Positions 1 to 10,005 of a DNA stretch of 14,132 bases are shown here, one piece after another. The position numbers and the translations under genes were made by a program. Source of the DNA: Promethearchaeota archaeon (GTDB lineage Archaea; Asgardarchaeota; Odinarchaeia; Odinarchaeales; JBHLKK01); NCBI GenBank assembly GCA_048939465.1, contig JBHLPL010000011.1, positions 13,874-28,005 of the forward strand, read 5' to 3'. Under the pieces are notes generated by a model. It saw only the letters and a program-made list of their open reading frames with translations, was not told the origin of the DNA and did no database searches. The first letter of the stretch is position 1. Every line of letters begins with the position of its first letter.

Positions 1-956
1 ATTCTAATCTTTTCTACCTTAGCCGGCTCTATGTGTACGGTGAACATGTCTAAATGACTCACTTCCTCCTTCAGTTTCTTTTCTATTCTATCCGTAATCT
101 CATGAGCTCTCTTCACATCTAAGAAACCTGATACTCCTACTGTCGCCTCGCCAAATATGAAAGAACCAGATTTTCTGAGCTTTATATCTCTCATCTCTTT
201 TACGCCATCAACTTTGGACACTATGGTCTCTATAGACCCTAAGAGTTCTGGATCTGTCCATGCGTCAAGTAGGAGCAATGTGGTATCCTTCGTGGAGATA
301 ACTCCAATTCTAAGAATCAATATGGAGAGAATTATGCCAACTACTCCCCCTGCATGAAGAAACCCTATATATGAAAATACAAGGCTCACAAAGACCGTAC
401 TGGATTTCAAGATGTCCGATTTCCTTTCTCTTGCATTGATTAGTATTATTTCTGAGCCAATTCTGGTTCCGACTTTGCTGAGGTAATGGAATATCCAGAA
501 GGAGGCAATGATAGACACAATCGCTGCTGCAAAGGCCATAGACGCAAATCTTAACTGTGTTGGGGCCAAGATTTGGATTATGCTTTCTCTGAGGAGCACT
601 GCGCCGATAAAGACAATAAAGACTGAAACAATCAGACCGATCAAGTTTTCCACACGATAATATCCGTAAGGGAATCTTCTGTCAGGACTTCTCTGAGAAA
701 CCCTCAGTCCGAACCATGAAGCAGACATAGTAAAGATGTCTGAGAAAGCATCAAATGCATCACCAATTAAAGAAATACTGCCTGACAGTAATCCAGCCAG
801 TAGTTTCAGAGTTAAGAGGGCTACGGCAGCAAAAGCTGAATATGCTGTTAGTCTTTCTCCTTGTTTTAGGAGACGTGCTCTCTCTCTTGACGAGTCGGAA
901 GACTTCGATTCATCGATTTGCATCTTCATCATCGTGATTCCTATCTGATTCTTCAT
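1..956 (-). CDS. Cation diffusion facilitator (FieF/CDF family) transporter, 3'-partial; probably fused to a C-terminal NifB/NifX-like domain beyond the window edge
   Basis: Not in the ORF track because it runs off the left edge. Manual translation from ATG 956, directly after the TAA of the upstream gene, is open to base 1. It reads ...LLSGSISLIGDAFDAFSDIF...RFPYGYYRVENL...NARERKSDIL...LLDAW...DIKLRKSGSFIFGEATV...AHEITDRIEKKL...TVHIEP-AKVEKIRI, which are CDF TM2/TM5 and cytosolic-domain motifs. The final KIRI resembles the start of a NifX-type domain. Confidence 0.9.
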   Translation of the reverse strand, partial: MKNQIGITMMKMQIDESKSSDSSRERARLLKQGERLTAYSAFAAVALLTLKLLAGLLSGSISLIGDAFDAFSDIFTMSASWFGLRVSQRSPDRRFPYGYYRVENLIGLIVSVFIVFIGAVLLRESIIQILAPTQLRFASMAFAAAIVSIIASFWIFHYLSKVGTRIGSEIILINARERKSDILKSSTVFVSLVFSYIGFLHAGGVVGIILSILILRIGVISTKDTTLLLLDAWTDPELLGSIETIVSKVDGVKEMRDIKLRKSGSFIFGEATVGVSGFLDVKRAHEITDRIEKKLKEEVSHLDMFTVHIEPAKVEKIR

Positions 957-2897: not shown

Positions 2898-3329
2898 CTA
2901 TCTACGTCTGCCCCCTCCGCCTCCTCTTCCCATTCCCCTACCCATACCTCGCCCGCCGCCGATACCAGGAGCCGTAGGAGATGTGATTTCTGTCAGTTCT
3001 CCTTTTATGTATTCTTGAACCGCATCCCTTACAGTTGTACCCAAAGGCCCAGCGAATACCTTTATGCCAACTTGATTTAGTGAGGCAAGGGCATTTGGCC
3101 CTAGGTTACCCGCAATTATTGCATTAGCACCTAAATTCGCCACTGTTTGGGCCGCCTGGATCCCCGCGCCTCTGAAAGCGTCTACTGAAGTATTCTGAAC
3201 CACATTGGCCAATTCTATTCTGCTATTGTCAACGTCTACAACAGTATAGAATGCGCATCTGGCAAAACGGGGGTCAATGTATGCGTCCAAACCGCCTGGC
3301 GCCTGAGAGGCTACCACAACTCTAATCAT
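2898..3329 (-). CDS. NifB/NifX (dinitrogenase FeMo-cofactor-binding / ORP-like) family protein with Gly/Arg-rich C-terminal tail
   Basis: DPRFARCAFY, GAGIQAAQ and GNLGPNA motifs. Tail is GGGRGMGRGMGRGGGGGRRR. Confidence 0.88.
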   Translation of the reverse strand: MIRVVVASQAPGGLDAYIDPRFARCAFYTVVDVDNSRIELANVVQNTSVDAFRGAGIQAAQTVANLGANAIIAGNLGPNALASLNQVGIKVFAGPLGTTVRDAVQEYIKGELTEITSPTAPGIGGGRGMGRGMGRGGGGGRRR

Positions 3330-4222
3330 TTTCTTGATCCCTCCCTAGCTTCTATTTTCAATCGATTCACTATCTTCTCAGAGATGGTTTCCAAAATCTT
3401 TGCGGACGGGGAACTCCTATGCTCGATAACGAATGGTTTTCCGATATCAGAATCACCCGATATTGTTGGATCCATAGGGACTCTTGCCAGAAGAGGAACA
3501 TTAGTCTCATGGGCTAGTTTCTCACCGCCTCCAGATCCAAGTAGCTCGAATTCCGAACCGCATTTTGGACATATGAATCCACTCATATTCTCAACTATGC
3601 CTAAGATGGGAATCTTCATCATCTTCACCATGTTTATTGCTTTTCTAACAACTAGTTGCGAGACCTCGGAGGGTGCGGTGACCATTATAACACCATCTAG
3701 ATCTGGTATCAGTTGCATTATGGTAAGCGATTCATCTCCTGTACCGGGAGGTAAATCTATAAGCAAGAAATCCAGTTTTCCCCAGACCACATCCGACAGG
3801 AACTGACGTATTGCTGTCATCTTCAGTGGTCCTCTCCATATTACGGGGGAACCACTATCCGGAAGGAAAAAATCCATTGAAACCACTTCTATGTTGAAGG
3901 GGCCTATTATGGGGAAGATCCCGGGGGGTCCTGCAATTGGATGCTGCCCTTGGATTCCTAACATTTTGGGAATGCACGGCCCATGGAAATCTGCGTCAAG
4001 AATCCCCACTCTGAGATCCCTTGAAGCGAGTTCTGCCGCCAGATTTGCAGTTATCATACTTTTCCCTACTCCACCCTTTCCACTCATGACTGCGATTTTG
4101 TGATCTATCTGCTTCATGCGTATTCCTAGTTTTCTTTCTTGCTCGATGACTTTTTCTCTTGATTTGGAGAGTCTACCTTCTTGCGTTATGGGGGTTTCCT
4201 GACTCATTTTATTCTCCTTCAT
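3326..4222 (-). CDS. mrp: Mrp/NBP35/ApbC family Fe-S cluster carrier ATPase
   Basis: MSGKGGVGKS, DADFHGP, VIWRGP, WGKLDFLLIDLPPGTGD, ENMSGFICPKC. The true start may be ATG 4207, which has AGGAG 6 nt upstream. Confidence 0.95.
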   Translation of the reverse strand: MKENKMSQETPITQEGRLSKSREKVIEQERKLGIRMKQIDHKIAVMSGKGGVGKSMITANLAAELASRDLRVGILDADFHGPCIPKMLGIQGQHPIAGPPGIFPIIGPFNIEVVSMDFFLPDSGSPVIWRGPLKMTAIRQFLSDVVWGKLDFLLIDLPPGTGDESLTIMQLIPDLDGVIMVTAPSEVSQLVVRKAINMVKMMKIPILGIVENMSGFICPKCGSEFELLGSGGGEKLAHETNVPLLARVPMDPTISGDSDIGKPFVIEHRSSPSAKILETISEKIVNRLKIEAREGSRK

Positions 4223-4237
4223 TCCTGAACTATCCCC

Positions 4238-4612
4238 TTAATGCCTATGACGAGACTCACCGCAGGGCTCCGTAAGCGGCACAAGCTTCTTATCCACATA
4301 GGCGTCAATGGCTTCCCTGACGCTTCCAACTTCCCCGGAAAAAACATCTATTCCCAAATCCTGAAACAAGGAGATAGCTCTCCGACCCAGTCCTTTCACA
4401 ATCAATACGTCGGGCTTGAGATCGACTATGAGCGCAGAAGCACGACCACGACCTCCAAAGTGCTCTCCTACGTTCTTTACAGGATTAAGACTCCTGACTT
4501 CGTTTTCCTTTGATAACTCAACCACTGCAAAGACGGGCGCTCTGCCGAAATGGCCAGAAATCTGAGACTTTTCTCCTGCAAATTCTTCAATTGGTATTAC
4601 AATCTTGACCAT
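4238..4612 (-). CDS. NifB/NifX family protein (second), with Cys/His C-terminus
   Basis: SGHFGRAPVF, EHFGG and GLGRRA motifs; ends PCGESRHRH. GAGGTGA Shine-Dalgarno at 4626-4620. Confidence 0.88.
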   Translation of the reverse strand: MVKIVIPIEEFAGEKSQISGHFGRAPVFAVVELSKENEVRSLNPVKNVGEHFGGRGRASALIVDLKPDVLIVKGLGRRAISLFQDLGIDVFSGEVGSVREAIDAYVDKKLVPLTEPCGESRHRH

Positions 4613-4767: not shown

Positions 4768-5127
4768 TTATTGGTCTTCCTTCATTTCGTTGAGTCTTTT
4801 TCTTATATCTTTCAATTGCTGCTCCAGTAGGCGTTTTTGACTCTCAAGCATCTGCTTTTCTTGATCTTTAGTTAATTGAGGTCTCATTGAAGCTATTGGC
4901 TGCGGAATCTTTGCGGGATCTATCGCGGCTTTTGGGAGAGTTTGTAGATATGATTGAAACTGCGGCAGTTGTCCGCTCTGCATTATCCACTCGGCAGTGG
5001 GGGGCAATCCGGAAGGAGATCTTCCAACCCAGCCTGGCGAGAATCCGAAGCGAATCCATCCAGGGAGGCCAGTTATTTGGTACATCCATCGATGTCTTCG
5101 TCCTCTTCCACCACCTCGATAAGCCAC
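4768..5127 (-). CDS. DUF5320-like protein (Gly/Arg-rich N-terminus, C-terminal coiled coil)
   Basis: RGGGRGRRHRWMYQITGLPGWIRFG...GLPP motif and heptad tail QEKQMLESQKRLLEQQLKDIRKRL. GTG start with GAGGTGG Shine-Dalgarno. Confidence 0.8.
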   Translation of the reverse strand: MAYRGGGRGRRHRWMYQITGLPGWIRFGFSPGWVGRSPSGLPPTAEWIMQSGQLPQFQSYLQTLPKAAIDPAKIPQPIASMRPQLTKDQEKQMLESQKRLLEQQLKDIRKRLNEMKEDQ

Positions 5128-5141
5128 TTTCGACCACCTCT

Positions 5142-5172
5142 ATTTTGTGTATATGCACAAAATCTTTATAAA
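5142..5172. promoter_or_regulatory. Palindromic operator ATTTTGTG-tATATg-CACAAAAT plus TTTATAAA TATA box (copy 1)
   Basis: 8-bp perfect inverted arms at 5142-5149 and 5156-5163, TATA at 5165-5172. A second copy is at 7232-7261. Confidence 0.8.
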
Positions 5173-5185
5173 GTTATCTATTGAC

Positions 5186-5394
5186 CCCAAGAACGCTCGT
5201 CCGAAGGGTGAAGATGAATTGCGTTGAGTTTCATAGACTCTTCTGTAACGAATATTTGAATTGAGTCGAGGTAGACTCATCGATTCGTGAGAGTCGAGTT
5301 TCAGGGCAGGAACTGCCCGTAGAGCCTGTAAGGCGCATCCCTTTAGGGAATGGATGAAGCAAGAAGCTCCTTGAGAAAGGAAGTAATAGTTCAC
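5186..5394 (+). mobile_element. Non-autonomous IS200/IS605-family miniature derivative (left end + TnpB-tail/omegaRNA-like right end, no tnpA or tnpB)
   Basis: TTGAC lies immediately 5'. Left end CCCAAGAACGCTCGTCC-GAA-GGGTGAAGATGAATTG is an imperfect hairpin. The plus frame 5301-5357 reads SGQELPVEPVRRIPLGNG*, like archaeal TnpB C-tails. Right end is GATGAAGCAAGAAGC-TCCTT-GAGA-AAGGA-AGTAATAG-TTCAC. The match is to remembered family end patterns, not to a database hit. Confidence 0.68.
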
Positions 5395-5425
5395 TGTATG
5401 AAAAGCAGATCACAACAACGCAGTA

Positions 5426-6424
5426 TCATGACTTAAAGGAATAGTAGGTCTCATCCTGACTGACTTTGCTGATTATCAAATCCTTGGATCTGAGCCTGGT
5501 CATATGTTTGATAACTGTTGTAGGGGAAAGACTTAGCATACTAGAGATATCTACGACACGGCAAGGTCTACGCTTGAGAATTTCAAGTATTTCATCTTTG
5601 AGATTCTTGCCAGGCTTCCATTCTACACGCTTACCTCTCGCATCATGGATTCCATAGACCCAGAGTTTTTCTTCGCCCAAGGTCCCTTTGAGGTCGTTAG
5701 CAAACTGGCTTAGATCATTTTGGGAGACGGGTCGAACGAACCCCTCTGATGGAGGTCTCCAAGGTGTGTATACCTGGACTAGATCCGGATTAATATCAAT
5801 TATCGAGTTTATCAACTGTCGTCGGGCTTCTCCGTCCACATTTGATATTCCAGAAGTTGTTCGAAGGAGCATGACTTCTAAAGCTACCATACCTTCGGTT
5901 TTTGCCTTAAGACTCTTTATTGACTGCTTTATCTTCTGGATGCTTATGCCTCTAACAGGTCTGTTTATGGCTCTGAACGTTTTTTCATCCCCCGCGTCAA
6001 ACTTGTTGGTAATTATGTCCAATCTAGAGACGTTTTCCGCCACATCACTTCTATGTAGCTGAGAAGCATTTGTAAGGATCACCAAAGGGATTGAACCTAC
6101 CAGGGGGCGAATTCCGTCTATAATCTCCCCTAATTTTAGATTCAATGTAGGCTCACCGGTCCCTGAAAACGTAACTACATCAATAGTGTCAATATCAATT
6201 CCGGTAAGGAATTGATTAAATTCATCTATTATTCTGCCAGGTGTGGGGAGATCCTCATTTACTTTTCCGGGATCTGACACATGAATCTTTGTTCTTCCCA
6301 ATTGGCAATATATGCAATCAAAAGTGCATTTCTTCGGTAATGTTGTGGTATCTATTCCTAAAGATCGGCCGAATCGCCACGATGGGACAGGTCCATAAAC
6401 AGTCTTCAAAAATCTGACCTCCAA
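5426..6424 (-). CDS. Radical SAM protein (TYW1/wyosine-synthase-like, COG0731-type) with C-terminal winged-HTH-like segment
   Basis: YGPVPSWRFGRSLGID, CTFDCIYC (CxxxCxxC), FSGTGEPTL, ILTNAS. The C-terminal ~55 aa (EILEILKRRP...LSLSPTTVIKHMTRL...) look like a wHTH. TTG start. Confidence 0.88.
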   Translation of the reverse strand: MEVRFLKTVYGPVPSWRFGRSLGIDTTTLPKKCTFDCIYCQLGRTKIHVSDPGKVNEDLPTPGRIIDEFNQFLTGIDIDTIDVVTFSGTGEPTLNLKLGEIIDGIRPLVGSIPLVILTNASQLHRSDVAENVSRLDIITNKFDAGDEKTFRAINRPVRGISIQKIKQSIKSLKAKTEGMVALEVMLLRTTSGISNVDGEARRQLINSIIDINPDLVQVYTPWRPPSEGFVRPVSQNDLSQFANDLKGTLGEEKLWVYGIHDARGKRVEWKPGKNLKDEILEILKRRPCRVVDISSMLSLSPTTVIKHMTRLRSKDLIISKVSQDETYYSFKS

Positions 6425-6425
6425 A

Positions 6426-7163
6426 TTAAATCAGTATTATACAGCCTGATCCATTTTCTACATATTTGTCACCCATTGCTTCTTTGAAAGCTTCCTTAGC
6501 CCCCGCTCCCGTGCAGTGACAAGGAGATACAAGACTGACCTCTAACCTATGAAAATACTCCAAAATCGGTGTGACTTCTTTTTCGCTGGAGACATGAAAG
6601 CCCCCTATCACAGCATGAACCCTAGAGACCCCACTAACCTGTCTAGAAGTCTCTACTACTCTTATCAAGCCCGGATGAGCACATCCAGTAAGAACAATCA
6701 GTCCTTTATCCTTAATATTGATGACTACTGAATGCTCGGCTATTCCACCTTCCACTCTCCCGGTAGATATGCAGCCTCGTGCTATTCTTGCGGGAGTGGC
6801 TCTAACTTCTGGCATTCCTCCAAGTTCTCTTATCTTAAGCTCAGCAGATGGATTCTCCGAAGGAAGATAGATGGGTATTGGAAGCTTTAGCAAGGGCAGC
6901 AATTTGGTTAATGCTCCGCAGTGATCGCCGTGCCAATGTGATATGAAGACGGCGAGGATTTCTTGAAAATCAATCCCCATTTTTTCAGCGTTTGTTAACA
7001 AGGTCTTATGAGAGCCACTGGTATCCATCAAAAAAATGAATCGTTGTTTGTCGTATGCCAATTCAATCTGGAAGGACAGACCCCAGCAAGAAAGCAAGTT
7101 GGGGCGTTTTATCTTATTGTCCACAAGTGTGGATATCTTTGCTGTATTTGCGACTTCAGGCAG
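6426..7163 (-). CDS. Metallo-beta-lactamase-fold hydrolase (COG1237-type)
   Basis: WGLSF, MDTSG, ISHWHGDHCGAL (HxHxDH), GCAHPG, GGFH, PCHCTG. The ORF track starts at GTG 7124, but the frame extends to PEVANTAKISTL-VDN, so the start is set at CTG 7163 (or ATT 7166) behind GGAGG. Confidence 0.88.
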   Translation of the reverse strand: MPEVANTAKISTLVDNKIKRPNLLSCWGLSFQIELAYDKQRFIFLMDTSGSHKTLLTNAEKMGIDFQEILAVFISHWHGDHCGALTKLLPLLKLPIPIYLPSENPSAELKIRELGGMPEVRATPARIARGCISTGRVEGGIAEHSVVINIKDKGLIVLTGCAHPGLIRVVETSRQVSGVSRVHAVIGGFHVSSEKEVTPILEYFHRLEVSLVSPCHCTGAGAKEAFKEAMGDKYVENGSGCIILI

Positions 7164-7231
7164 AATGAAACCCCTCCCGCCTCGATTAATTGCTAACTGC
7201 CGTAGCAGCTATTCAGGGCTGTTTTCAAGTT

Positions 7232-7261
7232 ATTTTGTGAATATACACAAAATTTTATAAA
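7232..7261. promoter_or_regulatory. Palindromic operator ATTTTGTG-aATATa-CACAAAAT plus TTTATAAA box (copy 2), divergent promoter region
   Basis: Arms at 7232-7239 and 7246-7253 are identical to copy 1; TATA at 7254-7261. Lies between the MBL gene (-) and DUF134 (+). Confidence 0.8.
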
Positions 7262-7319
7262 GCCTTCTAGTATTTTAGTCTAATGGAAATCCCTAAATCG
7301 TGTCGTCCCGGAGCGGTGA

Positions 7320-7661
7320 ATGCAGATGCGTAGACGATGGCGAAAAGGTCTAAGAAGGCCAGGTCGGCCAACCAAGCCGCGAACCTTGGAAACCCCGCCG
7401 GAAATCAGACACTTCATACCCGCCATTCCCAAAGACAGGTTAGATGATTTTCCTGATAATCCCATTTTTCTATATTATGACGAATTTGAAGCCTTGAGAT
7501 TGGTAGATCTGGAAGACCTGTCCCAAGAAGAAGCAGGGGAGAGAATGGATATCTCTAGAGGTACAGTTTGGCGTCTTATCGAGGAAGGTCGTAAAAAGGT
7601 CATTCAAGCTCTCATTGAAGGAAGAGAATTGTTCATAGTACCCAGAGAAGCTGAAGGGTAG
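7320..7661 (+). CDS. DUF134 / UPF0251 family HTH DNA-binding protein
   Basis: GRPTKPR...DEFEALRLVDLEDLSQEEAGERMDISRGTVWRLIEEGRKKV...ALIEG. GGTGA lies 6 nt before ATG 7326, which is the likelier start. Confidence 0.92.
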   Translation: MQMRRRWRKGLRRPGRPTKPRTLETPPEIRHFIPAIPKDRLDDFPDNPIFLYYDEFEALRLVDLEDLSQEEAGERMDISRGTVWRLIEEGRKKVIQALIEGRELFIVPREAEG

Positions 7662-7687: not shown

Positions 7688-8095
7688 CTAGAAAAGGACT
7701 GACTTTATGTGTTTTGTGCCCTTGCTGCCGAATATCTCTTCGGCTAGATCATTAATCTTCTCCGCTTTTCCTCTCACTACGATGACTTCCAGACAGTTCT
7801 CTTCATCAAGATGAACGTGAAGTGTGGAACTTATAATGTCTTCATAATGATGTTGAGTGTGTGTCAAGCCATCAGAAGCCCCCCTAATAGTATGATCAAA
7901 AAGAACTATTAGAGTACCAACTCTCTCTCCTTCGCTTCTCTGTAGCTCCTTGTATTCTGAGATGAAATTTCGTATGGCATCCCTGGTTGCTTCAGATCTA
8001 TTAGTGTAGCTGCTTTTTTCAACTATTGAGTCAAACTCACCCAGCAATTTCTTTGGCAGGGATATGCCCGTTCTGATGACCTTTTCCTTCTTCAT
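7688..8095 (-). CDS. nikR: Nickel-responsive transcriptional regulator NikR
   Basis: N-terminal ribbon-helix-helix (RTGISLP...NRSEATRDAIR). Ni-site residues are present: QHH, LHVHL (two His) and NCLEV. Confidence 0.95.
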   Translation of the reverse strand: MKKEKVIRTGISLPKKLLGEFDSIVEKSSYTNRSEATRDAIRNFISEYKELQRSEGERVGTLIVLFDHTIRGASDGLTHTQHHYEDIISSTLHVHLDEENCLEVIVVRGKAEKINDLAEEIFGSKGTKHIKSVLF

Positions 8096-8755: not shown

Positions 8756-9481
8756 TTGCATATCAGAACATTCCCCATGCTTGATAAGATATTGGGTGAA
8801 GGAATCTCTCCAAGAAATATGGTAATAATTAACGATACTCCAGCTGCCAATGGATATTTACTGGCTGACCAAATCTTCTTTGAAGAATTAGGTAGAAATA
8901 AGTACGGCATCTTCATGGCATTTGACCATTCCCCGGATATGCTACGCCAGAAATTCAAAGCAGCAGGATTTGACAGTGAGAAATACGAAAGCGAAGGAAG
9001 ACTGTTCCTGATTAACTGCTTCAAATTTATGGAGAAGAGTGGCCCATTTGCTGTAACTGACCCTTCAAACCGACCAGAAGTAATAAGACCTTTTAGAGAG
9101 ATAAGTAGGGTAACCAAAGGGAAGATGAAAAACAATACAGTGTGCGTGGTTGACTCCCTGCTGTCTTTGGCCACACTATTCAGTGTACAGCACGTGATAA
9201 GCTTCAGTCTGCTAATGCGTGAGATGTCCATAAAATATGGCTGCACAATATTCATGATAGCTCCGCAGGCCATCGACAAAGTCTGTAAATGTCTTGAGCT
9301 GATAGAATATAATTCAGACATTGTAATAGAGTTCAGAATAAGGGAGCATGATAAGAAGAATCAACCTATGCTTAGAGTTAAGAGACTGGGGGGATCGCCA
9401 CCTTCTGGCTGGATGCCCTTCTTGGTGAAAAAGGGTGTTATCAAAAGCATAGGGGTTTCTAAAAAGAATTCGCAAGACTAA
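8756..9481 (+). CDS. KaiC/RAD55 (RecA-superfamily) ATPase-fold protein, apparently inactive
   Basis: RTFPMLDKILGEGI start, GFDSEKYESEGRLFLINCF, Walker B VVDSL and DIVIEF are present. The Walker A position reads NDTPAANGY, with no GKT/S. Confidence 0.8.
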   Translation: MHIRTFPMLDKILGEGISPRNMVIINDTPAANGYLLADQIFFEELGRNKYGIFMAFDHSPDMLRQKFKAAGFDSEKYESEGRLFLINCFKFMEKSGPFAVTDPSNRPEVIRPFREISRVTKGKMKNNTVCVVDSLLSLATLFSVQHVISFSLLMREMSIKYGCTIFMIAPQAIDKVCKCLELIEYNSDIVIEFRIREHDKKNQPMLRVKRLGGSPPSGWMPFLVKKGVIKSIGVSKKNSQD

Positions 9482-9486
9482 AGCAG

Positions 9487-10005
9487 CTATTTTGGCACAT
9501 ACTTCTCGACTATGTCTTCCGCCATTATGTTGAACAGATTCTCAACGCCGTTCCCAGATTTTGCGGATGTTTCTAAGAATTCCAGTTTTGCCTTTTCAGC
9601 AAACACCGATCCTTCATTGGACGAGACCTTCCTCGCATCGTTCAGATCGGATTTATTGCCAACTAAGATTATTGGAACTCTTCCACAATACTTGTCAACA
9701 TCGCCAAGCCATTTGTCAAGGTTGTCAAAGGATCTCTTATTCGTTATGTCGTAAACGAGTATAGCGCCTCTTGCCCCCTCCAGGTAATGCCTTCTCAGAA
9801 TCTTGTATTTTTCTTGACCGCCTATGTCCCAGATGATTAGATTGAGGTTCAGTTTGCCGAAAGGAACGAACTTCCCTGCAAAGTCTATCCCGATAGTTGG
9901 TTTGTAATCCCCTGTGAAGCGTTTCTCAGTGTATCGAACGATTAGGGAGGTTTTTCCCACTTTTTCATCTCCGACCACTACAACTTTAAATACATACTCT
10001 TTCAT
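9487..10005 (-). CDS. Rab-like small GTPase (Ras superfamily, eukaryotic signature protein)
   Basis: G1 GDEKVGKT, switch I YKPTIGIDF, G3 WDIGGQ, YLEGARGAILVYDIT, G4 NKSD, G5 ETSAK. No C-terminal Cys. Confidence 0.95.
   Translation of the reverse strand: MKEYVFKVVVVGDEKVGKTSLIVRYTEKRFTGDYKPTIGIDFAGKFVPFGKLNLNLIIWDIGGQEKYKILRRHYLEGARGAILVYDITNKRSFDNLDKWLGDVDKYCGRVPIILVGNKSDLNDARKVSSNEGSVFAEKAKLEFLETSAKSGNGVENLFNIMAEDIVEKYVPK

Follow-up and report, generated by a model that had tools for sequence, protein, structure and literature searches.

A 14,132-nucleotide (nt) stretch of contig JBHLPL010000011.1 (positions 13,874–28,005; hereafter the window), from a Promethearchaeota archaeon of the Asgard archaea, carries a palindrome of 22 base pairs (bp) twice, each time beside a TATA box, together with the gene for a 113-residue helix–turn–helix (HTH) protein of the DUF134/UPF0251 family (PF02001). 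The family is old and widespread among anaerobic archaea and bacteria, and its function is unknown. Here, we describe both copies and the genes that they precede, follow the palindrome through the genome (G000: 1.96 Mb in 152 contigs, 91% complete, 43% G+C) and across archaea, and weigh an earlier reading of the window (the original prediction) that proposed the palindrome as a candidate operator for the DUF134 protein.

Palindromes, promoters and genes of the window

Copy 1 of the palindrome, ATTTTGTG-TATATG-CACAAAAT (5142–5163), is a perfect 8+8 palindrome, and copy 2 reads ATTTTGTG-AATATA-CACAAAAT (7232–7253); the two share the same arms and an ATAT centre, and each copy stands 0–1 nt from a TTTATAAA box. 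With its flanks, copy 1 is TATTTTGTG-TATATG-CACAAAAT-C-TTTATAAAG (5141–5173), in which a single C precedes the box at 5165–5172, and copy 2 is TATTTTGTG-AATATA-CACAAAAT-TTTATAAAG (7231–7262), in which the box, itself symmetric, directly abuts the palindrome at 7254–7261. The original prediction had described such palindromes, with identical arms and an ATAT centre beside TATA boxes, at exactly these two places, and had found no further copy in the window; both statements held. A scan for TTTTGTG-N6-CACAAAA with up to two mismatches matched only here, the number expected by chance being 0.07, and none of 200 shuffled windows gave two matches. Both copies of the palindrome, located by pattern scans of the window and the genome, are strandless features, as is the TATA box at copy 2, which was read from the sequence like that at copy 1; the latter belongs to the minus strand.

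On the minus strand, the order at copy 1 is TATA box, 1 nt, palindrome, GGTGG (5138–5134) and a GTG start codon (5127). Copy 2 lies downstream of its TATA box when read on the minus strand, towards a unit encoding a metallo-β-lactamase (MBL)-fold protein and a radical-SAM protein. Read on the plus strand, towards the DUF134 gene, it lies upstream of the same box, on the position of the TFB-recognition element (BRE; TFB, transcription factor B), and 58 nt separate the TATA box from the DUF134 start codon. If the TATA box is centred about 26 nt before the transcription start, as is usual in archaea, minus-strand transcripts would begin at the far edge of the palindrome, at about 5142 (5140–5145) for copy 1 and at about 7231 for copy 2.

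Behind copy 1, seven minus-strand genes make up the DUF5320–NifX–Mrp–NifX–MinD–MinD–CDF unit. The first (4768–5127) is DUF5320-like: its match to PF17253 (E 0.0016) is below the cut-off, and its N-terminal Gly/Arg-rich PGW pattern is common to the genes behind the motif in loci L005, L006, L007 and L013. Then come a NifX-like protein (4238–4612; PF02579), an Mrp/NBP35 ATPase (3326–4222; PF10609), a second NifX-like protein (2898–3329; PF02579), two MinD/CbiA ATPases with a ferredoxin insert (1847–2752 and 957–1850; PF01656 and PF00037 in each) and a CDF cation efflux protein, assigned by a family profile match, which runs off the window (3–956). Lying on one strand with overlapping or abutting reading frames, the genes from DUF5320 to CDF would form a single operon. 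Just upstream of the promoter of copy 1, between the stop codon of the radical-SAM gene and the TATA box, the 252 nt gene-free stretch 5174–5425 is a dispersed repeat with about 20 further copies on 17 contigs of the same genome, at 70–89% identity. In G001, a genome of the same genus, about 45 nt are all that stands here (L006 1521–1565), and for this reason the stretch looks like a mobile insertion. An Rfam scan of the window matched no family, the repeat included, and a tRNA scan of the window gave none.

Behind copy 2, reading frames and family profiles delimit a second minus-strand unit (5426–7124), comprising the MBL-fold protein (6426–7124) and the radical-SAM protein, which ends in an ArsR-type winged helix (5426–6424; HTH_5, E 1.5e-05). 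Full-length orthologues of this radical-SAM/HTH fusion were found, besides the window genome, only in G001, G003–G005 and G012. The true start of the MBL gene is probably upstream, near 7166. Its frame stays open from the GTG at 7124 up to 7208, and there is no ATG, GTG or TTG in that interval. Since the first strand of the family (AKISTLVDN) is encoded upstream of this GTG, and ATT and CTG codons follow GGGAGGGG near 7166–7163, the use of a non-canonical start codon is suggested.

The DUF134 gene (7320–7661) is on the plus strand, and a NikR gene, recognized by a family profile match, converges on it from the minus strand (7688–8095); this neighbourhood is not conserved, NikR being encoded in none of 80 related loci. 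Further along, a KaiC-like frame (8756–9481, plus strand) stands tail to tail with the gene for a Ras-family small GTPase (9487–10005, minus strand). The GTPase and the closest relative of the DUF134 protein, which is encoded in a metagenome-assembled genome of Candidatus Hodarchaeota (76% identity), indicate an Asgard origin for the stretch.

Conservation of the palindrome

Elsewhere in the genome, a third copy was found on contig C89 (G000:C89:2465–2486; L003 1500–1521), with one mismatch in the outer 16 letters. It adjoins the TATA-like GATATAAAT and lies 26 nt before the TTG start codon of a DUF5320 gene (PF17253, E 7e-23). These three are the only sites in the whole genome with at most one mismatch of 16, all of them beside TATA-like boxes in front of genes, and a reversed control pattern has no copy at this stringency. 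Sites with three mismatches are no commoner than those of the control pattern (16 against 9). A site with two mismatches (G000:C43:2090) was not counted; it lies among small integrase- or phage-like frames and lacks the GTG…CAC symmetry of the core. The predicted regulon in this genome thus comprises three marked promoters. The original prediction had assigned both transcription units of the locus to one regulator; the two minus-strand units do carry the mark, but the count of promoters rises from two to three.

Among 41 relatives, the exact pattern occurs in seven genomes: besides that of the window, these are one from its genus, three that belong to a second family and single members of two further families. 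The reversed control gave one match. Over 400 genomes of the phylum, 36 have an exact match, with 49 sites in all against 14 control sites; in one family, 12 of the 22 genomes do. The convincing sites share an extended core, GTGC-N4-GCAC, and precede DUF5320-like genes, DUF134 genes, Mrp/radical-SAM operons and a few genes for small Gly/Arg- or Cys-rich proteins. In G004, one strand carries, in order, a site, Mrp, radical-SAM, a small gene, a second site, DUF5320, two NifX genes and DUF134. Three small proteins encoded behind exact sites (L080 1535–1966, L081 1585–2079 and L082 1579–1851) are not recognizable by eye as DUF5320; they have a CRCGYGPNA[FY]Y motif or a zinc ribbon with a Gly/Arg-rich tail. 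In another relative, a site precedes feoA–feoA–feoB (L004 1501–1520; G009:C2:33454–33473), which links the predicted regulon to ferrous iron uptake.

To follow the palindrome further, we used 80 loci encoding DUF134 proteins of the short group to which the window protein belongs, drawn from a set of bacterial and archaeal genomes with one representative per species. They span ten Asgard lineages, Bathyarchaeia (the majority), Archaeoglobales, Aenigmarchaeota, Brockarchaeota, Thermoplasmata and Methanomassiliicoccales. A site with at most three mismatches of 16 is present in 55 of the 80; there are 79 matches, against two for the reversed control. Where the DUF134 start codon could be placed, 52 of 75 matches are centred between −100 and 0 relative to it. 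Likewise, a site lies within 130 nt upstream of the DUF134 start in 39 of the 72 loci with enough upstream sequence, including all five from Archaeoglobales/Archaeoglobi. The count matrix of these sites gives the consensus aTTTTGTGcttATGCACAaaat, in which TGTG and GCACA are almost invariant; the conserved core, as aligned here, is TGTGC-N4-GCACA with an A/T-rich centre and flanks. The expectation that orthologous promoters would carry the motif is therefore borne out, both within the genus and other Asgard families and for Bathyarchaeia, Archaeoglobales, Aenigmarchaeota and Brockarchaeota, and in related genomes the motif is indeed concentrated upstream of DUF134 (within 100 nt) and DUF5320 genes.

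The sites also bear on whether the palindrome might act as a nucleic acid structure, for instance a leader RNA hairpin, a terminator of the upstream gene or a cruciform, instead of as a protein site. Each copy can form an 8 bp hairpin with an energy between −5.9 and −6.9 kcal/mol (z between −2.9 and −4.8), a property that any palindrome of this size would share, and copy 1 is downstream of the radical-SAM gene. Nevertheless, changes in the arms among 125 sites are one-sided in 182 cases and complementary double changes in only 18, while TGTG/CACA is nearly invariant across phyla. The stem is weak, A/T-rich and without a T-run; at promoters where the site follows the TATA box, the usual spacing to the start would leave it untranscribed; and the Rfam scan mentioned above matched nothing. 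Because the changes are mostly one-sided and the hairpins weak, the element is conserved as sequence and not as structure, and we regard a purely structural role as extremely improbable.

DUF134 as the candidate binder

The window protein matches PF02001 over residues 13–106 with 80.5 bits (cut-off 27; E 1.5e-22), and also gives Sigma70_r4 matches. It falls within a subfamily that we define here and call SRGTxWR, characterized by a [VI]SRGT[VI]WR[LF] helix (SRGTVWR in the window), an invariant Gly-Arg in a basic N-terminal arm, a length of about 105–125 residues and the absence of a C-terminal CxxC…CxxC ribbon. In an alignment of 17 sequences, Ser79, Arg80, Gly81, Trp84 and Arg85 are invariant, as are Gly15 and Arg16. 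The protein has no cysteine and a single histidine, and hence no obvious metal or cluster site.

In a structure model (mean predicted local distance difference test, pLDDT, of 80, rising above 90 for the HTH residues 50–100), a disordered basic arm (1–20) and a short strand lead into a three-helix HTH of the region-4 type, whose third helix is long (80–100), and the chain ends in a further strand. The closest solved structures are the DNA-binding domain of DeoR on its operator and region 4 of an extracytoplasmic function (ECF) sigma factor on −35 DNA. A Foldseek search of the PDB gave no match at an E-value of 0.001 or better, so that the likeness is at the level of the HTH, and structure searches found no solved structure of the DUF134 family itself. 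The homodimer model scored 0.81, against 0.01 for the best of three controls; at least 92% of contacts recur between its runs, and the partner has a pLDDT of at least 76. The 0.81 mark was reached by 20 of 30 structures that pair one chain with itself and by 1 of 23 single-chain structures, although these counts apply only approximately, since the window protein was modelled from an alignment of our own. The modelled interface comprises residues 27–36, 56–64 and 91–106 and leaves the start of the recognition helix free. The models thus support DUF134 being a symmetric dimer with a sigma-70 region-4-type HTH.

The original prediction knew of no established binding motif for the family, and a literature search on DUF134 (UPF0251, COG1342, PF02001) and on DUF5320 likewise turned up neither a DNA target nor a published motif. 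In the library searched, two papers name DUF134, and neither of them concerns what it does. All of the approximately 25 genomes with convincing sites encode DUF134. Occurrence of the motif in genomes lacking DUF134, which would have spoken against the pairing, is confined to 2 of the 36 genomes with exact matches, and their sites lack the GTGC…GCAC core, like the chance matches of the reversed control. Relatives that lack DUF134 (G002 and G006) also lack DUF5320 and the motif, the module being either missing or unassembled there; this is consistent with the pairing but does not discriminate.

A sharper comparison comes from the two groups into which DUF134 proteins divide by sequence, a short one with the [VI]SRGT[VI]WR[LF] helix and a long one with VSQPTFxRIL that ends in the CxxC…CxxC ribbon. 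At loci of the SRGTxWR type, TGTGC-N4-GCACA is present in 65 of 96, and a different palindrome, ATGAATA-N2-TATTCAT, in 3 of 96 (2 for its control). At loci of the SQPTFxR type the figures are reversed, with TGTGC-N4-GCACA in none of nine and ATGAATA-N2-TATTCAT in eight of nine. The latter often lies about 20 nt before the start codon of an SQPTFxR-type DUF134 gene (L014, L015, L022, L035 and others), and some genomes encode both subfamilies within one locus (L065 and L066). In these comparisons, the motif switches with the DNA-reading residues of DUF134, which is hard to explain by another binding factor.

That switch also has to be accounted for if some other protein reads the palindrome and DUF134 is a mere co-regulated neighbour. 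Four kinds of protein come into question: the radical-SAM/HTH protein (5426–6424), NikR (7688–8095), a DtxR-type regulator and a CRP/FNR-type regulator. The radical-SAM/HTH gene belongs to a site-headed unit in G000, G001 and G003–G005, but no full-length orthologue was found in G009 or G022, both of which have the site, and seven radical-SAM loci away from DUF134 carry no site. Co-occurrence within the 80 loci points in the same direction: NifX-like genes are present in 55, MinD/Mrp in 36, radical-SAM/HTH in only 14, MBL in 13 and NikR in none. NikR, which the original prediction had set beside DUF134 as a possible binder, can therefore be set aside, as 55 of these loci have the site. Known NikR tetramers bind half-sites about 16 bp apart, and the gap between half-sites here is 4–6 bp. 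For a DtxR-type regulator, it can be said that a gene for a DtxR-family iron repressor is directly upstream of the site and the DUF5320 gene in G022 (L005 1591–1989), and that feoAB, a classical target of iron repressors, carries the site in G009; for a CRP-type regulator, that the core resembles the TGTGA-N6-TCACA of CRP-type sites. None of these proteins would explain why the motif changes with the recognition helix of DUF134, and we consider a different binder very unlikely. As regards such regulators in the window genome, 91% complete, no true DtxR or CRP/FNR protein was found; the closest are an RbkR-like riboflavin kinase regulator and ArsR/MarR-type proteins, and the sole PF13545 match above the cut-off is the RbkR-like fusion to a CTP-dependent riboflavin kinase.

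We therefore judge it likely that the palindrome is the operator of DUF134 (7320–7661), which would act as a dimer to repress the DUF5320–NifX–Mrp–MinD–CDF and MBL/radical-SAM operons and, probably, its own gene. The proposal that DUF134 is the binder gains from the conservation and position of the site, from the absence of NikR and from covariation with the recognition helix, all read from sequence. Several points weigh on the other side. DUF134 is encoded in 313 of the 400 genomes of the phylum, so that plain co-occurrence has little power, which is why tests at the level of the locus and of the subfamily were used instead. In about a third of loci of the same subfamily, the sequence retrieved contains no site. 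The 113-residue protein shows no feature that would bind an effector. At the Mrp operon of G003–G005 and at the promoter of DUF134 itself, the site is upstream of the TATA box, a position from which some archaeal regulators act as activators. Finally, the evidence is all comparative, the related genomes are not independent, and choosing sites by a mismatch threshold skews the lists towards the consensus.

Predicted mechanism and known systems

Of 79 distinct related sites, 39 adjoin a TATA-like box that is no more than 12 nt away and, in every case, on exactly one side (5% in control windows). The TATA box comes first, followed by the site, at both window copies (minus strand), at the third copy (L003) and at L005, L007, L120, L097 and L166, and in many loci of this arrangement (L120, L097 and L166) the DUF134 start codon stands directly after the site. 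The site comes first, with a gap of 0–3 nt, at the window DUF134 gene, at L008, L009, L012, L141, L133, L165 and L146, and at the Mrp operon of G003–G005; the order of site, TATA box, about 30 nt and DUF134 start recurs at L141, L133, L165 and L146. Often the same TATA box also has a second site on its far side (L068, L071 and L141).

In the mechanism that we propose, each subunit of a DUF134 dimer would set its HTH, with the recognition helix SRGTVWRL, on one TGTG/CACA half-site, the centres of the half-sites being one helical turn apart, and the disordered basic N-terminal arm with its invariant Gly-Arg (PGRPTKPR, resembling an AT-hook) would probably enter the A/T-rich minor groove. At the two DUF5320 promoters and the MBL/radical-SAM promoter, the site would fill the space between TATA box and start, and a bound dimer would block recruitment of RNA polymerase. 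Since the gap is only 0–3 nt where the site comes first, the site would there cover the BRE; at its own promoter, DUF134 would thus compete with TFB, giving negative autoregulation. Of the autoregulated repressor envisaged in the original prediction, conservation of the site in the DUF134 promoter stands (the 52 of 75 matches between −100 and 0), but repression of this promoter is less certain, as the site is upstream of the TATA box.

We read both arrangements as repression, with activation conceivable at promoters where the site comes first. DUF134 could accordingly bind as proposed yet act in two ways, repressing where the site lies between TATA box and start (DUF5320, MBL/radical-SAM and feoA) and activating where it immediately precedes the TATA box (its own gene and the Mrp/radical-SAM operon of G003–G005). 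Both arrangements do occur, each of them conserved, and position-dependent dual action has reportedly been described for TrmBL1/Tgr of Thermococcales. However, a gap of 0–3 nt puts the site on the BRE itself and not upstream of it, which favours competition with TFB, and the sandwich formed where a second site flanks the TATA box (L068, L071 and L141) looks repressive. We hold such dual action to be unlikely.

The signal to which the repressor responds is probably metal or cluster status, because the predicted regulon is a set of metal-cluster genes like those of the orange protein (ORP) system, with iron–sulfur handling genes and, in one relative, feoAB. As DUF134 has neither cysteine nor a sensor domain, this signal may arrive through a partner protein. 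One speculative form of this idea, which we consider unlikely, is that DUF134 and the Gly/Arg-rich DUF5320 are a pan-archaeal feedback pair, in which DUF5320 or a cluster-loaded NifX-like protein reports metal-cluster status as a co-repressor or anti-repressor and DUF134 represses or activates according to the side of the TATA box. It draws on DUF5320 being the most constant predicted target of DUF134 and its divergent neighbour from Archaeoglobales to Asgard archaea.

The type of system is itself ordinary, consisting of an autoregulated dimeric HTH protein, a palindrome and an archaeal core promoter. What is added here is the apparent split of DUF134 into two specificity classes and the predicted three-promoter regulon of G000. 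With an operator, two specificity classes linked to the helix and a small regulon, DUF134 becomes directly testable as a self-controlled repressor. For Asgard archaea, in which gene regulation is barely known, the palindrome would supply a first example of a cis-regulatory element paired with a candidate factor. The genes predicted to be under its control (DUF5320, NifX-like, Mrp/NBP35, MinD–ferredoxin, CDF, MBL and radical-SAM genes, and feoAB in a relative) also offer a way into what ORP-like metal-cluster genes do, which even in Desulfovibrio is not clear.

In D. vulgaris Hildenborough, the orp operons are controlled by OrpR, a sigma-54 enhancer-binding activator with an Fe–S sensor, through the site GGGCGYRTTTTGCGCCC (PMC8359166, PMC3897727 and PMC6345978). 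The two systems share targets, namely the NifX-like 'orange protein', Mrp/NBP35 and MinD-like ferredoxin ATPases, and in the window this gene set is represented by two PF02579 proteins, one PF10609 protein and two proteins with PF01656 and PF00037. They also share a palindrome at two neighbouring promoters, a regulator encoded in the locus and a very small regulon. The regulator differs, being here a 113-residue DUF134 protein without cysteine that would recognize TGTGC-N4-GCACA at an archaeal TATA promoter and is likely to repress. Sigma-54 is not known from archaea; no OrpR-type activator is encoded in the window, and the site differs from GGGCGYRTTTTGCGCCC.

In its mechanism, the nearest characterized archaeal case is EnfR (TON_1525) of Thermococcus onnurineus, a repressor of the Tfx family with a region-4-type HTH that dimerizes via a long helix, has no effector domain and targets the codh cluster (PMC10570040; PDB entries 8hno and 8hnp). 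EnfR and DUF134 have in common a small archaeal protein with such an HTH, a pseudo-palindrome or palindrome in the core promoter and an N-terminal loop or arm in DNA recognition, which for DUF134 is predicted. The HTH of EnfR is a weak structural match to the DUF134 model (ranks 30–48). Nevertheless, EnfR belongs to another Pfam family, has another fold outside the HTH and reads a 36 bp pseudo-palindrome of unrelated sequence, and a family profile scan of the window gave no Tfx match for the DUF134 protein.

Archaeal repressors that bind between or over the TATA/BRE elements and the start, such as MDR1, Phr, NrpR and TrmB-type proteins, have palindromic sites and dimeric HTHs and are often autoregulated. 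They use the same operator position as that seen here, but belong to other protein families and read other motifs. Among solved proteins, the one closest to DUF134 is Bacillus subtilis DeoR (SorC family), in structures of its DNA-binding domain with the operator (PDB entries 7bhy and 8r7y), with a profile E-value of 6.8e-06 and a root-mean-square deviation of 0.6 Å over 40 residues at 40% identity. In both, the HTH is of the region-4 type, and that of DeoR is bound to a palindromic operator. The likeness is confined to the HTH, since DeoR assembles into higher oligomers and contains a large domain that binds sugar phosphates, whereas DUF134 has a basic N-terminal arm and, in the model, a β-strand and a C-terminal strand that form a dimer interface of its own.

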